A DNA stretch of 39,748 nucleotides from an uncultured archaeon (GCA_964388035.1 CAYLZE010000042.1:1-39748), one strand, 5' to 3'; positions 11,775-16,014 are shown, counted from the first letter of the stretch. Notes: generated by a model from the sequence alone, not told the origin. A program made the numbers and translations.

Positions 11775-12941
11775 TTATTTTCCCTTTTTCTTAAAATCTC
11801 CAATAACTTCCGTGTATTTTTTAACAGAAATCGTTGTGGGATTCCTTCTGAAGCTTAAGGGAATGTCGCCACTACAGCGAGAACATATAGTTGATTTTCT
11901 AGTCCATTCCCTGAACTCATCTCCATGAGCAGGATAATTGCATTTAGGACATAATACAATTTTACGTCCTTTATCTTCGGGATATGAGGGAAGTTTAAAG
12001 CAAAAAATACATTTAAAATCATCGATAGATAACACTCCCGCCTTGGGTTTATATTTATCATAATTTACTGCTTTAGATTTTGCTGTCTTAGTTTTGGTGC
12101 CACTGACCCTTGTTGGTTTTCTTGAGGGTTGCACTGTTCGGCTACTGGTTTTAGCTCTTGATGTTCTCGATGAAGTAGAAGTTCTTATTGTTCTAGTTGG
12201 GGGAGTAGATCTACTTCTCGTGGTCGGGTTTGCTCGCGCTGGTGTACTACTTACTTGGTCAATTTGTCTCCTTCGACGAGCAATATAATCGGATGAAACA
12301 CGTGGCATGGCACGTCTTGAACCAAATATTCCATGTCTAATTAATAAATAAACGCAAATGATAGAAAAGACTAATAAAAGAATGTCAAAATAATTTTGAG
12401 GATAAGCAGAATATGTCGGATTTAAAACAGGACTTAAAAAATTCACGATTTCTGCTTGGAATATTAAATAAAGTATCACTATTATAATTAAGATAATAGA
12501 ATATCCAATTGCAAATTTTCGCGCAATAATCGACCTGGTTTTATAAATGTAAACGAGGTTATATTCCTTAAAACATTTCCGTAGAATAGTAAGACCATAT
12601 AAAAGCCAGGGAAAGGCAAAAATTAATCCCCATAAACTCAAATAAAAAAATGAGAATCCATCGCCCAAAAGATTATCTCCTAAAAATCCCGTATAATAAC
12701 TCCAGAAATTGTAGAAAAACCCGAAAAGCAAGGGACCAAACAAAAAAAAAGGAGTATTATGTGGCGAATTATATTCCTTATAATGTTTTCTTTTTTCAAA
12801 ATACTTTAGTAAAAAAAGAATCCAAGCTCCAAGTAATAATACGGTAAAAAAAATATTAGTTGAATTAAATATAAAGAATCCAAGAATGACTGCAATAACT
12901 AAACAAATAAGAGAAAAAATAATAGTACGTTTTTTAAACAT
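11775..12941 (-). CDS. Polytopic membrane protein (~6 TM) with Ser/Thr/Arg-rich linker and C-terminal RING-variant zinc finger; putative membrane E3 ligase
   Basis: Six hydrophobic segments in the first ~205 aa. Motif C-x2-C-x16-C-x2-C-x4-H-x2-E-x3-W-x6-C-x2-C at about 11874-12011. The start ATG overlaps the JAMM stop (TAATG). Confidence 0.75.
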   Translation of the reverse strand: MFKKRTIIFSLICLVIAVILGFFIFNSTNIFFTVLLLGAWILFLLKYFEKRKHYKEYNSPHNTPFFLFGPLLFGFFYNFWSYYTGFLGDNLLGDGFSFFYLSLWGLIFAFPWLLYGLTILRKCFKEYNLVYIYKTRSIIARKFAIGYSIILIIIVILYLIFQAEIVNFLSPVLNPTYSAYPQNYFDILLLVFSIICVYLLIRHGIFGSRRAMPRVSSDYIARRRRQIDQVSSTPARANPTTRSRSTPPTRTIRTSTSSRTSRAKTSSRTVQPSRKPTRVSGTKTKTAKSKAVNYDKYKPKAGVLSIDDFKCIFCFKLPSYPEDKGRKIVLCPKCNYPAHGDEFREWTRKSTICSRCSGDIPLSFRRNPTTISVKKYTEVIGDFKKKGK

Positions 12942-13744
12942 TATTCTTCATCATATTCAAGGTAAATTGCTTTCCCATCTACTATGGGATTAATGAAGTC
13001 TATTAATTGGGGTAATACAGAAGGATCCAAAGCTCCTCTTATCTCAAAAGATATATTATGAAACTTTCTTAATTCTAAATTCACTTTAAAAATATCAAAT
13101 CCATAAGACCTCCCATCAATTTGAGTAGGATCAATTACCAATGCTACAGCGTTCTCCCAAAACTTCTGGTACCTTGAATGCGTGTCTAAATCTTCTTCGC
13201 TTAAAAAAAGGCCATAGCTAGGATGAGAATGATACCATCCACAGATAAATAATTTATCATTTTTAATTTCATTATATGCTCTTGTATAACTTTTATAATC
13301 CTTTATCTCGGCATTTAATGCCGTACCGTGCCCCATCGGATAGGCATCTTTGATGTATAACTTTTCATTATTCGTATCTAGTTCTCCCGCTAATAATCCA
13401 ATTACTTCTATCCACTGAGATTTTGGAATCTTTGCATTTGCATATTTTAATGAATGGCTCGCTATTTTTAATACGGGCTTAATATCGATGATTAGTCTCG
13501 AAGTATTTTTTACATTTTGTGGAGATTCTTTAATATTCATTTTATCTACGGAAGTAGGAATCATCTCGGTATCAATCAATGAAGAAACTTCATTAATCAA
13601 ATCATTCACTTCTAATTGCAATTCTTTATAGACTTCTTCAACGAGCTCTTTGGTCATGCGTTCCTTGATCTTTTGCTTAATCCTTTTTTTAATCTCTTCT
13701 TTATTAAATTCGCTGCCACTCACTAAATTCTCACCACTTCTCAT
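12941..13744 (-). CDS. JAMM/MPN+ metallo-isopeptidase (Rpn11/CSN5-like) with N-terminal extension
   Basis: EVIGLL, GWYHSHPSYGLFLSEEDLDTH (complete E-xn-HxH-x7-S-x2-D motif), ALVIDP. Confidence 0.93.
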   Translation of the reverse strand: MRSGENLVSGSEFNKEEIKKRIKQKIKERMTKELVEEVYKELQLEVNDLINEVSSLIDTEMIPTSVDKMNIKESPQNVKNTSRLIIDIKPVLKIASHSLKYANAKIPKSQWIEVIGLLAGELDTNNEKLYIKDAYPMGHGTALNAEIKDYKSYTRAYNEIKNDKLFICGWYHSHPSYGLFLSEEDLDTHSRYQKFWENAVALVIDPTQIDGRSYGFDIFKVNLELRKFHNISFEIRGALDPSVLPQLIDFINPIVDGKAIYLEYDEE

Positions 13745-14267
13745 TTGCGTATTTCTTTACTAAATGTTTAACTTTCTTTTCGAAATAATCACGTTTTTCC
13801 ATCATTTCTATTGCAGCTTTTTTGTTGAACACATCTTTTGGATTTATAAACAACCCTCTAGTATTTAACATGGCAATAATCGCTTGAATTACCGTTGTTA
13901 TAGTTTTAGATGGGCTCCATCCTCCTTTTTGACCAACTAAAGAAGGATCCACGAGACTAAGGCAGATATTCCTCTGACCGGGATATTCAGAGGGTTTTGG
14001 CCAAAAGTTGGGATGCCATATTGCGGTGTGAAGTCTAACAAAGGGAGGCTGATTTGGATAAGCTGCCGGGAACTTGATTTCTAATTTAAATATTCCTTTT
14101 TGATACGCGGTCCCTTTGGGTCCTTTGATAGCAACTGCGAGATGATCAATACTTTTATTTTTAGGATCAAACGGTTTCAATTGAATAATCGTTCCATTTT
14201 TGAGCATTTTCTTTAAAGCAGCAAAATCTTGTGATATTCTCGATGATCTTAAACTCATGATATCCAC
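13731..14267 (-). CDS. Ubiquitin-conjugating enzyme E2 (UBC fold)
   Basis: GPKGTAYQKGIFKLEIKFPAAYPNQPP, IWHPN, catalytic ICLS, WSPSKTI. Confidence 0.95.
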   Translation of the reverse strand: MDIMSLRSSRISQDFAALKKMLKNGTIIQLKPFDPKNKSIDHLAVAIKGPKGTAYQKGIFKLEIKFPAAYPNQPPFVRLHTAIWHPNFWPKPSEYPGQRNICLSLVDPSLVGQKGGWSPSKTITTVIQAIIAMLNTRGLFINPKDVFNKKAAIEMMEKRDYFEKKVKHLVKKYANEKW

Positions 14268-14342
14268 ATCTATTTATTATTCCTATTAAATTCATGAAAA
14301 TTAATGTATTTAATTATGTTGTTAATAAAAAAAATCCCAAAA

Positions 14343-15569
14343 TTATGAAAGATGTAGAGTAACAAAAATTTGGTTTGCTTCCTTAAATCCCACCGCGGTA
14401 ATCAATTCTAACTCTCTTAATTGATTCTGAATTGGATTTAATTCCAAATCAATTTCTCTAATGTCGTTAAAATCCATGATTGTTAAAAGAGGTTCCATGT
14501 CCGGATCAAGACTAAATCCCATTTCCAATAATTTTTCTATTATTTTAGATGTAAGGTCCTTTTTAGAAATCTGAATGTCTACTCTTTTAACGGAGTTCCC
14601 GCATTGTAAGCAGTCCAGATTTCTCTTTTTCTCAACGGAATAAAGCTTTTGGGTCATTGCATTATATATGATATAGGATTTGGTAGGTTCCCCTAAAGCT
14701 TTATTTCCTCTCAACCAATGTAGAATTTTCACCGCTTCATGAGACTGCAATGAAGAAATCACAGCATTGATGGTTATTATTCCTGGGTCGTGTCGATCAA
14801 TTATTTTTACTATTTCATCGTCAGTAAATGGAGGGAGAAAATTATGTTTATTTACTAAGTTATTGGCATATTCTTTAAGATAACCAACGTCTTTAGAATT
14901 TTTTGGGTCTGGTTCTTTTTCAAATTGTTCTGCAAATGCCATGTTTGCTTTAAATACACAATGAATTCTTTTTCTTGGAATACCTACTACCGTACATGCC
15001 GCCATATCATCCATTTCTGCCTGGGGAAGGGGATTACATTCATAACAAGCATTTTCATAGGGAAAAACCGTATAAAGATGACCATGATATCCTGCTACAC
15101 CTCCATCTACCAATGGTTTTTTAAACCGCACGCATTGAGCGTTCAAGTTCAACCGTGCATTCATTGAATCAAGACCTCCAATAATTAAATCTGCTTTCTG
15201 ATAGAGAATAGGGGCCACTCTTTCTAATGAACTAAAATATCCCTCTATCTCTACATTTGGATTTATTCTTAATAAAGATCGCGCCGCAACCTTTGCCTTA
15301 GGTTCTCCCATTTTGGCGCCTGTAAAAAGTATTTGCCGATTCAAATTAGAATGTTCAATTATGTCTAGATCTACTAAGTCTAAATGGCCTACCCCGAGCA
15401 TGGTTAAATTTTTAGCAATTTCACACCCAAGTCCACCTACTCCCGCAATTAAGATACGCGAGTCTTTTATAATGCTTTGTGACCAACCTTCTAGTCTAAA
15501 TTGGCGATCATATAAATCTCGTTCTTCCGCGGTTAATTTATCACTAAAAAAATCTGAATCTTCCTTCAT
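14343..15569 (-). CDS. Ubiquitin-like activating enzyme E1 (ThiF adenylation domain with Uba2/Uba3-type catalytic-Cys insert)
   Basis: YDRQ, GVGGLG, DLDIIEHSNLNRQ, GLDSMNAR, zinc pairs CYEC and CLQC, catalytic ACTVVGIPRKRIHCV, PGIITINAVIS. Confidence 0.93.
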   Translation of the reverse strand: MKEDSDFFSDKLTAEERDLYDRQFRLEGWSQSIIKDSRILIAGVGGLGCEIAKNLTMLGVGHLDLVDLDIIEHSNLNRQILFTGAKMGEPKAKVAARSLLRINPNVEIEGYFSSLERVAPILYQKADLIIGGLDSMNARLNLNAQCVRFKKPLVDGGVAGYHGHLYTVFPYENACYECNPLPQAEMDDMAACTVVGIPRKRIHCVFKANMAFAEQFEKEPDPKNSKDVGYLKEYANNLVNKHNFLPPFTDDEIVKIIDRHDPGIITINAVISSLQSHEAVKILHWLRGNKALGEPTKSYIIYNAMTQKLYSVEKKRNLDCLQCGNSVKRVDIQISKKDLTSKIIEKLLEMGFSLDPDMEPLLTIMDFNDIREIDLELNPIQNQLRELELITAVGFKEANQIFVTLHLS

Positions 15570-15633
15570 TTTAGATCAGCTTAACTTTAAAAATATTAAA
15601 TTAAAATAATAAAATTTCTTACTTGACAAAATT

Positions 15634-15656
15634 AAAAAAAAAAATACTTAAAAAAA
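15634..15656 (-). terminator. Oligo-T tracts (T7 and T11 on the minus strand) just downstream of the Ubl gene; candidate archaeal terminator
   Basis: A-runs at 15634-15644 and 15650-15656 on the + strand. Archaeal terminators are U-rich, but the genome is AT-rich overall. Confidence 0.35.
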
Positions 15657-15666
15657 GGAAAAGTAA

Positions 15667-16014
15667 CTATCCTGCAGTGCTTGCAGGAATTAAAAGGACC
15701 TCGTCACCATTCTTAACATTATAATTTGATAAGGGTTGAGAATCATCCATAGTTACTCCGCCAGCAGATAAATGAAAGTCACTGGGATCGAGTCCAAAGA
15801 TATTACCAACCGTGCGCTTAATATCTCCTACTGAATTTCCATTATCAACAGATAATTTTTGTCTTTTTTCCCCAGGACCTACTGTGGATAAGAAATATAC
15901 ACCCATTTTTTCTCCTCCTGCAGATGCAGCAGGAGTTTTGGACTTCATTGCTGGAGCGGGAGTTTTCTCGTCTAATTCCTCATCAAATTCATCATCTTCA
16001 TTTTCAAAACTCAT
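15667..16014 (-). CDS. Ubiquitin-like beta-grasp modifier with acidic disordered N-terminal tail, ending -PASTAG
   Basis: Pattern KLSVDNGNSVGDIKRTV...FHLSAGGVTMDDSQPLSNYNVKNGDEVLL resembles ubiquitin (LEVEPSDTIENVK...[27 protein letters not shown]). Terminal Gly. First gene of the E1/E2 cluster. Confidence 0.88.
   Translation of the reverse strand: MSFENEDDEFDEELDEKTPAPAMKSKTPAASAGGEKMGVYFLSTVGPGEKRQKLSVDNGNSVGDIKRTVGNIFGLDPSDFHLSAGGVTMDDSQPLSNYNVKNGDEVLLIPASTAG

Follow-up and report, generated by a model that had tools for sequence, protein, structure and literature searches.

A conserved Asgard archaeal gene cassette for a predicted ubiquitin-like conjugation cascade with a candidate membrane-anchored RING ligase

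Gene content and conservation of the cassette

The stretch of DNA analysed in this work, the window (39,748 nucleotides from an uncultured archaeon, GCA_964388035.1 CAYLZE010000042.1:1-39748), is contig C42 of an Asgard metagenome-assembled genome (MAG) of 5.47 Mb in 211 contigs (96.7% complete, 7.3% contamination). ORF calling found five co-oriented open reading frames (ORFs) on its minus strand, running from 16014 to 11775, which code in this order for a ubiquitin-like modifier (Ubl), an activating enzyme (E1), a conjugating enzyme (E2), a JAMM metalloprotease and a transmembrane (TM)/zinc-finger protein, called here the fifth protein (Table 1). We think it probable that this region, which belongs to an operon widespread in Loki-type Asgard archaea, encodes a complete and self-contained Ubl conjugation and deconjugation cascade with a dedicated ligase (E3) anchored in the cytoplasmic membrane. 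The cascade order and positions of the five genes agree with a preliminary description made from the sequence alone, and so do the two overlaps that it had reported: E2 and JAMM share 14 nucleotides (ATGAGAAGTGGTGA), and the JAMM stop overlaps the start of the fifth gene as TAATG. Both overlaps, as read in the sequence, recur at orthologous loci and appear to be of the translational-coupling type. Long T-runs lie downstream of both the Ubl and the E1 stops, so the genes may be transcribed in three parts (Ubl / E1 / E2-JAMM-fifth gene), and the Ubl/E1 spacer is a possible transcript boundary.

The arrangement of the five genes is conserved far beyond chance. We analysed synteny in the best 80 loci of 157 relatives, obtained from a scan of one genome per species, and the JAMM gene is directly upstream of the fifth gene and co-oriented with it in all 80. 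The E2, E1 and Ubl genes precede them wherever the contig reaches, the exception being L061, with a truncated E1 ORF and no detected Ubl. The genes that flank the cassette are ordinary metabolic genes, and three distant homologues found on long contigs keep the Ubl-E1-E2-JAB-fifth-gene order within unrelated flanks. This strict and long-term co-inheritance across Asgard genomes supports the earlier proposal that the five genes constitute one conserved functional unit.

The fifth-protein family is present in 189 of the 400 genomes of the phylum that were surveyed and in 117 of 134 in the GTDB family of the window. Three families outside its class are positive in 24/31, 7/12 and 19/22 genomes, and many other families in none; these outside families match the fifth-protein profile only at E ~1e-29 to 1e-36, and the gene still adjoins JAMM. 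The full gene order is found in family f16, f13 carries the adjacent blocks E2-JAMM-TM-RING and Ubl-E1, and in f15 the contig ends before the upstream genes. A complete cassette, with a Ubl ending in -STAGI, is also present in a closed genome of 6,035,313 bp from the same order. With respect to the public annotation of these relatives, a complete cassette (L091, DATKTW010000176.1) lies on a contig that bears the deposited name 'Candidatus Nanopelagicaceae bacterium' and almost certainly comes from an Asgard genome and was put in the wrong bin, and the NCBI labels Thor-, Odin-, Hermod- and Hodarchaeota carried by close relatives (39-48% identity in the fifth protein) look unreliable.

The modifier and the three enzymes all score above the curated Pfam cut-offs, and the enzymes look to be of the canonical ubiquitin (Ub)/NEDD8/SUMO type and are predicted to be active. 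The E1 (ThiF, 199.8 bits) combines an adenylation domain with a short region that holds the catalytic Cys (Cys192) and an extension at the C-terminus. Its best matches among solved structures are SAE2 (131 bits), UBA1 (~122 bits) and UBA3 (113 bits, aligned residues 32-337); UBA5 scores 59 bits. In 68 orthologues the nucleotide-binding-type motif G43-x-G45-G46-x-G48, Cys192 and the zinc cysteines C175/C178/C320/C323 are invariant, and Cys192 aligns with the Cys of 'PGCTIRNTP' in SAE2, which we take to be its catalytic Cys173. The E2 (UQ_con, 92.8 bits) has UBE2R (R1/R2), UBE2T and UBC13-type E2s as its best relatives in the PDB; over 21 orthologues the mean column identity is 85%, and the HPN motif (residues 85-87) and the catalytic Cys102 are invariant. 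Its start is most likely ATG 14258 rather than GTG 14267, because the orthologues uniformly begin MS(I/L)RSS. The JAMM protein (JAB, 51.2 bits) is Rpn11/CSN5-like, with a charged N-terminal extension of ~90 amino acids (aa), and among solved structures it comes closest to 6fjv, the Rpn11-like protein of Caldiarchaeum (E 2e-14), and next to CSN5 and Rpn11; E113, H172, H174, S182 and D185 are invariant in 71 orthologues. The catalytic motifs of the three enzymes, which had been reported as intact, are therefore not only confirmed but also invariant in the orthologues.

Table 1. Positions of the cassette genes, their parts and the divergent neighbour in the window (aa, amino acids)
Feature	Coordinates	Strand	Family or basis
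Ubl modifier, 115 aa	15667..16014	-	PF00240
Ubl/E1 spacer	15570..15666	-	T-runs directly after Ubl stop, A/T-rich stretch before E1; sequence reading
E1, 408 aa, single chain	14343..15569	-	ThiF
E2, 178 aa from GTG 14267	13731..14267	-	UQ_con; likely true start ATG 14258
JAMM/MPN+ metalloprotease, 267 aa	12941..13744	-	JAB
Fifth protein, 388 aa, whole gene	11775..12941	-	No Pfam or NCBIfam match
Fifth protein, membrane domain, aa 1-210	12312..12941	-	AlphaFold model, Lys+Arg counts, invariant columns
Fifth protein, disordered basic linker, aa 211-293	12063..12311	-	Low pLDDT, charge statistics
Fifth protein, predicted variant RING/U-box domain, aa 294-388, plus stop	11775..12062	-	Invariant ligands, fold searches, hhalign
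Divergent coiled-coil protein, 522 aa	16175..17743	+	Homologue search in 80 loci; weak coiled-coil Pfam matches only

The fifth protein: membrane domain, tether and C-terminal domain

The fifth protein has no match in Pfam or NCBIfam, and its family forms 91 clusters at 90% identity, in which the named members are all from Asgard MAGs and are all annotated as hypothetical. An AlphaFold model built on an alignment of 36 sequences (mean predicted local distance difference test score, pLDDT, 78.7) contains six TM helices at residues 4-24, 28-56, 64-80, 103-125, 140-169 and 187-205 (pLDDT ~85-97) and, within the fourth loop, a short beta-hairpin; these are followed by a helix at 217-230, a disordered linker (pLDDT ~40 over 231-290) and a confident C-terminal domain. 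The Lys+Arg counts from the N-terminus through the successive loops to the C-side are 3/0/4/0/7/0/7, and because of this pattern the positive-inside rule predicts an N-in/C-in topology, in which the conserved loops, the linker and the C-terminal domain would all be cytoplasmic. Conserved residues in the cytoplasmic loops are E56, N58, S59, P60, N62 and T63 and, further on, C123, K126, Y131, S137 and R141. The linker is rich in Ser, Thr, Pro and Arg: in 36 family members (reference positions 206-298) its mean net charge is +21.5 (range +10 to +35), its S+T+P fraction is 0.43 and it has on average 6.4 Lys.

The membrane domain did not match Hrd1, Doa10, MARCH, Pex or Derlin proteins in a wide VIA-align search or in Foldseek against the PDB; the full model matched only generic helical bundles in this part (Z score, Z, of at most 8.4), and such a failure of structural matching does not show a new fold. 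Shape and feature searches of the Atlas with the fifth protein returned only its own family. A Pfam TauE match to the TM domain (14.8 bits versus a cut-off of 32.6) was dismissed as noise.

The C-terminal domain is predicted from sequence and models to be a cytoplasmic variant of the RING/U-box fold. Its invariant residues follow the pattern C311-x2-C314-x16-C331-P-x-C334-x4-H339-x2-E342-F-x2-W346-x6-C353-S-R-C356, that is, seven invariant putative Cys/His zinc ligands and an invariant Glu (E342) at the sixth position. E342 is a better candidate for the replaced ligand than residue 341, because the latter varies (D/H/T/N) across other Asgard families in which E342 is kept. The flanking helices and the RING-typical W346 are also present. 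When modelled alone the domain reached a pLDDT of 84.7, and nearly all its listed matches in Foldseek (PDB) and in VIA-align, which is independent of Foldseek and covered 48,161 chains, were RING/U-box domains of E3s. The best structural match is 3lrq (Z 8.3, against best scores of Z 7-8 that are common even in models with no true match; root mean square deviation 4.1, 75 residues aligned), and others are Ring1b/Bmi1, CHIP, TRIM21/25, Rad18, RNF4, the HRD1 RING and the Pex12 RING. We consider that the unanimity of these model-based matches, and not their individually moderate scores, is what signals a RING fold.

Profile comparison is consistent with this assignment. In hhalign, the family profile aligned with a soluble RING protein encoded on contig C84 of the same genome, which is certified by PF13639, at 95.9% probability and E 5.4e-9, and the alignment matches H339 to the fifth ligand of the RING and E342 to the sixth. 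A profile search of the PDB with the RING alignment gave sub-threshold matches only: the IFT144 zinc finger (E 0.06), eS27, RNF165 (E 0.34) and the HRD1 RING (E 1.4), with the listerin RING within E 0.3-5. Taken together, the AlphaFold model, the fold searches and hhalign bear out the earlier view of a RING fused to a polytopic membrane domain. The Glu that would stand in place of a zinc-binding Cys makes this family a natural experiment on RING chemistry.

We also co-folded the E2 with the RING domain. The median ipSAE (interaction prediction score from aligned errors) was 0.33 and that of the best control was 0.00; this value is reached by 58 of 80 solved complexes and by 2 of 110 mismatched pairs, but only 7 of those 80, and both passing mismatches, stay at 0.60 or below. 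The runs share at least 90% of their contacts, with a partner pLDDT of at least 83. This lends weak support to the pairing and adds little beyond the fold evidence, because E2-RING complexes are abundant in the PDB and memory may contribute to the prediction.

The modifier and the proposed cascade in relation to known systems

The Ubl matches PF00240 with 27.9 bits (cut-off 25.4), and this family is matched by 23/23 aligned Ubl orthologues and paralogues, the SUMO-like Rad60-SLD family by 10/23 and the Ufm1 Pfam family by none of them. Its profile detects in the PDB the 'putative ubiquitin' structures 8hm1-3, Hub1, ubiquitin and the Caldiarchaeum Ubl (6fj7/6fnn), and UFM1 is absent among the 60 PDB matches listed. 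The protein consists of a disordered N-terminal tail of ~36 aa (acidic, then KSKTP), a beta-grasp core and the end ...LLIPASTAG followed directly by the stop. A start at the internal ATG of M37, which is preceded by GGAGGAG, was considered and rejected because the tail upstream of it is conserved in the orthologues, where an FDEFDE-type acidic stretch precedes an invariant K-T-P; therefore the long ORF is the real one.

The C-terminal end ...(I/V)L(L/M)IPASTAG is present in all 63 orthologues. The protein stops at the Gly in 43 of them and continues in the other 20 with 1-4 extra residues that are not conserved (I, K, RS, YF, IF, LN, KA, YV, RLI, TFK, ITM, YLV or KNNF); the Ubls of distant Asgard families also retain -STAG, with occasional K or IYY extensions. 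An invariant -STAG followed by a variable extension of 1-4 residues looks like a propeptide signature, in which the Gly would be the mature end and the precursor would be trimmed. The co-encoded JAMM protein is the likely processing enzyme, because Rpn11 processes the Caldiarchaeum precursor (PMC6043591). The description of the modifier as non-canonical has thus held up, since both the -AG end and the N-terminal tail are real and conserved across orthologues. For proteomics searches -STAG represents a new modifier terminus, and the remnant expected on Lys in this organism is the 14-residue NGDEVLLIPASTAG after trypsin and VLLIPASTAG after GluC.

Several related Ubl genes were observed at these loci. 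No paralogue of the modifier was found in the genome of the window, where it is single copy. A second modifier gene is present in relatives ~2 kb upstream (L037:543-926 (+), and at the equivalent place in 43 of the loci L017-L096); its product has 121-142 aa, a far longer acidic tail and typically an -ASTAG end, which in one case reads -ASIAG. A protein of ~264 aa (L037:971-1765 (-), equivalent place in 44 loci) has a hydrophobic N-terminal region with apparently two TM helices (by eye) and a C-terminal Ubl, and ends in ...ALIPSRKEKN. Because it lacks a terminal Gly, it is presumably a membrane-anchored and non-conjugatable Ubl-domain protein. Its gene adjoins that of a 223-aa protein resembling a winged-helix regulator, and the equivalent 223-aa gene in L008 matches PF03444. 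Finally, the closest relatives carry downstream of the cassette a gene for a protein of 260-296 aa (L018:8784-9674, L020:6432-7271, L021:8857-9639, L023:9481-10263 and L024:8092-8874 (+)), in which a zinc-ribbon-like CPKC motif at the N-terminus is combined with a coiled coil and, at the C-terminus, with a Ubl ending in -STAGFF, -STAGLF, -SRVAG or -SRVAE; this protein could be a natural fusion precursor of a modifier.

For the cassette we propose the following cascade. The modifier would be made ready to use in this organism, with its -STAG end, and elsewhere as a precursor from which JAMM would trim 1-4 residues. The E1 would adenylate Gly115 of the modifier and then form a thioester with it on Cys192, from where it would be handed to Cys102 of the E2. 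The six-helix fifth protein would hold its RING in the cytoplasm on a long basic tether, recruit the charged E2 (E2~Ubl) and promote transfer of the modifier to lysines on proteins in or close to the membrane, perhaps also to its own, and JAMM would reverse the modification. Action at the membrane, as the preliminary description had proposed, is the natural reading because the RING domain is predicted by the positive-inside rule to face the cytoplasm.

The closest known counterpart is the operon of Caldiarchaeum subterraneum, which encodes Ub, E1, E2, a small RING finger protein and an Rpn11-like JAMM and has been reconstituted in vitro (PMC5654768, PMC6043591, PMC3082918). Both systems combine the five functional classes in one operon; the JAMM described here is nearest to 6fjv, our Ubl profile detects the Caldiarchaeum Ubl, and part of the present family shares with Caldiarchaeum a short C-terminal precursor extension, the one that Rpn11 processes there. 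In contrast, the Caldiarchaeum RING is small and soluble, whereas the one described here is carried by a six-TM domain through a basic tether of ~80-150 residues and has Glu as its sixth ligand, and the modifier ends in -STAG instead of -GG and bears the conserved acidic/KSKTP N-terminal tail of ~36 residues.

Published Asgard systems share with the cassette the phylum, the kinds of E1, E2, Ubl and MPN genes and a cluster apart from the genes of the endosomal sorting (ESCRT) complexes. Lokiarchaeota have discrete Ub and ESCRT gene regions (Hatano et al. 2022, PMC9192718), and E3s were sought in that work via IPR018611 only. A Helarchaeial E1-E2-RING cascade ubiquitinates UEV-Vps23 in vitro (bioRxiv 10.1101/2023.07.25.550441), but there a soluble RING that carries an N-loop acts as the E3, and the modifier has a di-Gly followed by SPKN; published work catalogues Ub, E1, E2 and deubiquitinases (DUB). 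The Ubl-E1-E2-DUB core of the cassette is thus of a kind already catalogued for Asgard ubiquitin loci, and the membrane RING has no match among them.

We therefore regard the system as a membrane-anchored variant of the Caldiarchaeum/Asgard-type Ub operon, neither UFM1-like nor otherwise separate. The preliminary description had argued for a separate Ubl pathway analogous to UFMylation or to endoplasmic reticulum-associated degradation (ERAD), and had taken as a sign of separateness that no ESCRT genes occur in the window. Separateness does not fit a widespread Ub-type cassette with canonical enzymes and the distribution given above, and the missing ESCRT genes are uninformative because Lokiarchaeota keep discrete Ub and ESCRT regions; in the present genome a Snf7 gene is located on contig C30, apart from the cassette. 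A UFM1-like pathway deserved consideration given the single-Gly tail and a 2026 report that claims 'Ufm1 homologues' by structure in nine Asgard clades (PMC12962969), and the two systems do have in common a single Gly after a small residue, a short propeptide in some orthologues, disordered termini and a superficially similar tail. It was rejected on the E1, E2 and Ubl comparisons: in contrast to the pathway of UBA5, UFC1 and UFL1, the E1 is SAE2/UBA1/UBA3-like, the E2 belongs to UQ_con and none of the 23 Ubls matches the Ufm1 family.

As for ERAD, the analogy is one of architecture only. Like Hrd1, Doa10/MARCH6, MARCH and Pex2/10/12, the fifth protein would combine a multi-pass membrane domain with a cytosolic RING recruiting a UBC-type E2, and the HRD1 and Pex12 RINGs are among its structural matches. 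However, the TM domain has no detectable similarity to theirs, the ligand pattern is C4-H-E-C2 with a PHD-like C-x2-C-x4-H spacing, and not the RING-H2 of Hrd1 or the RING-CH of MARCH/Doa10, and no Derlin, Cdc48-adaptor or lectin partner occurs in the neighbourhood of the cassette.

Work on eukaryogenesis has yet to explain how ubiquitin became coupled to membranes (ESCRT cargo sorting, ERAD, organelle quality control), and discussion of the Asgard ubiquitin systems has to date featured only RING ligases that are soluble. In a membrane-embedded RING strictly co-inherited with a Ub-type operon there is now a concrete candidate to supply this missing link to the membrane, and probably the Loki-type Asgard relatives of eukaryotes already attached a Ubl tag to proteins at the membrane. 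The cassette occurs in well over a hundred species-level genomes of several Asgard families, and the members of the fifth-protein family, now 'hypothetical protein', gain a testable function. The searchable literature (closed-access papers and the asCOG tables being outside its scope) yielded no account of an archaeal Ub operon with a membrane-anchored RING, nor of a -STAG modifier, and so it is these two that appear to be new, the Ubl-E1-E2-DUB core being already known.

It is tempting to go further and propose, tentatively and as an unlikely extension, that the membrane RING is a dedicated E3 that tags integral membrane proteins of Loki-type Asgard archaea with the -STAG modifier and feeds them to a separately encoded ESCRT (containing a ubiquitin E2 variant, UEV) or to extraction by Cdc48/proteasome, as a prokaryotic forerunner of ubiquitin-dependent membrane sorting or ERAD, with the acidic tail and the basic tether (and the recurring KTP) serving as its own recognition or chain-building code. 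If this were true, membrane-protein sorting or an ERAD forerunner would have arisen before eukaryotes.

Alternative explanations and other genes

Several observations weigh against the proposed cascade with a membrane-anchored ligase. Up to an E of 0.1 the fifth protein finds no RING family in Pfam, and each fold score taken singly is moderate (Foldseek E 1e-2; Z 8.3). Because Glu is unusual in a structural zinc site, one such site may be changed here, and the domain might be RING-like but without catalytic activity; the complex prediction with the E2 is a weak pass. The genome encodes other E1/E2 pairs (C38, C13) and a soluble RING, and the pairing proposed here is not necessarily exclusive. 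Furthermore, one well-sampled genus within the GTDB family of the window has the cassette in 0/5 genomes (completeness 69-100%, and at least 94% in three), and a closed genome of 4.36 Mb (G135) keeps only a 43-aa RING remnant (L119:6229-6360), which reads ...DEFGEWVKHPSLYSRCDGEI... with one Cys changed to Tyr; the ~6 kb to each side of it contain no detected gene for a Ubl, E1, E2 or JAMM. This remnant looks like lineage-specific decay of the cassette and, because of it and of the genus-wide absence, the cassette must be dispensable.

An alternative is a real cascade in which the fifth protein is a receptor, an anchor or the principal substrate, with a pseudo-RING that docks the E2, the Ubl or JAMM, and in which conjugation is E3-independent or relies on soluble RINGs. 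The Glu at a ligand position, the lack of a Pfam RING match and the weak co-fold score agree with this, as do the Lys-bearing basic linker (mean 6.4 Lys), which is a plausible acceptor, the canonical soluble RING-H2 encoded in the genome and the soluble RING that serves as E3 in the Helarchaeial cascade in vitro (bioRxiv 10.1101/2023.07.25.550441). Nevertheless, all classes share an invariant RING core, the E2-facing region of W346 and the remaining ligands included, and this speaks for an active surface under constraint; the gene is the sole RING-type gene of the cassette and its start overlaps the JAMM stop; and auto-modification would be compatible with E3 activity. We therefore judge a pseudo-RING of this kind to be unlikely and favour a membrane-anchored E3.

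Two other functions have been considered for a gene set of this composition. One is anti-virus defence of the Bil, type II CBASS (cyclic-oligonucleotide-based antiphage signalling system) or 6A-MBL kind, in which the Ubl would be put on viral or effector proteins and the membrane protein would be an effector or a sensor. The Ubl/E1/E2/JAB content does resemble bacterial Bil operons (PMC11601596, bioRxiv 10.1101/2023.09.26.559546), the cassette shows lineage-patchy loss and the E1 gives generic matches to PADLOC E1-E2 models; but these matches cover only the shared adenylation domain and reach at most 53 bits versus 200 for Pfam ThiF, neither the Ubl nor the E2 nor the fifth protein matches a PADLOC model, the JAB reaches just 18.8 bits, and the components are closest to eukaryotic and Caldiarchaeum proteins. 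Moreover, the cassette is single-copy, occurs in most genomes of the family, is highly conserved (85% in the E2) and lies between metabolic genes, a housekeeping-like vertical pattern that makes a defence role very unlikely. Harder still to credit is that the genes serve sulfur transfer of the MoaD/ThiS/SAMP/Urm1 type and that the zinc-finger membrane protein is unrelated to them. The E1 scores ~137 bits against the MoeB/ThiF models of NCBIfam and 105 bits against the SAMP-activating UbaA, yet these values are far under the curated cut-offs of 250-450 (450 for the SAMP E1 model), the Ubl belongs to PF00240, a UBC-fold E2 with intact HPN-Cys and an Rpn11-like JAMM are conserved in the cassette, and the genome has separate short ThiF/MoeB-like genes. 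E2-independent sampylation of the SAMP/UbaA kind was rejected on the same UbaA-type score and on the presence of a conserved E2.

Several Ubl systems coexist in the genome, and only the cassette studied here carries a RING gene. On contig C38 (L002:1435-1974) there is a second E2 paralogue with an in-frame TAG just past the ...YPFQPP motif, in the vicinity of a subtilase and of a 528-aa E1 encoded on the other strand; it may be a pseudogene or reflect a sequencing error or recoding. At the start of contig C13 (1127-4459; L103, also L003) one strand encodes a weak E2 match (35 bits), a 302-aa ThiF-type E1, a 163-aa JAB/Prok-JAB protease and a 302-aa P-loop NTPase-like protein, apparently a compact prokaryote-style Ubl system distinct from the cassette. 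An 84-aa ubiquitin-family protein with a -QAGGK end (C33, L004:1486-1740 (-); PF00240, 31.1 bits) has no adjacent E1, E2 or RING gene. The soluble RING-H2 protein of contig C84 (L099:1492-2067 (+)) matches zf-RING_2 (PF13639, 32.2 bits, cut-off 27.3) and has a helical C-terminal part; its gene is divergent from a 413-aa ORF with small-GTPase motifs (by eye). Three JAB/MPN-domain genes within 3.3 kb (C12:48241-51506; ORFs of 352, 514 and 448 aa) might be an MPN cluster of the proteasome-lid/CSN/eIF3 kind.

Next to the cassette, the divergent neighbour on the plus strand encodes a coiled-coil protein with an N-terminal K-T-P-P-K-Y motif and the C-terminus ...PKYKIRSKTP. Its N-terminal 110 aa have a divergent homologue in 49 of the 80 loci, and in many of the others the upstream flank is not in the sequence. 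It is possible that this protein is a partner or a substrate of the cassette, and that the KTP which it shares with the modifier tail is an acceptor, kinase or docking motif.

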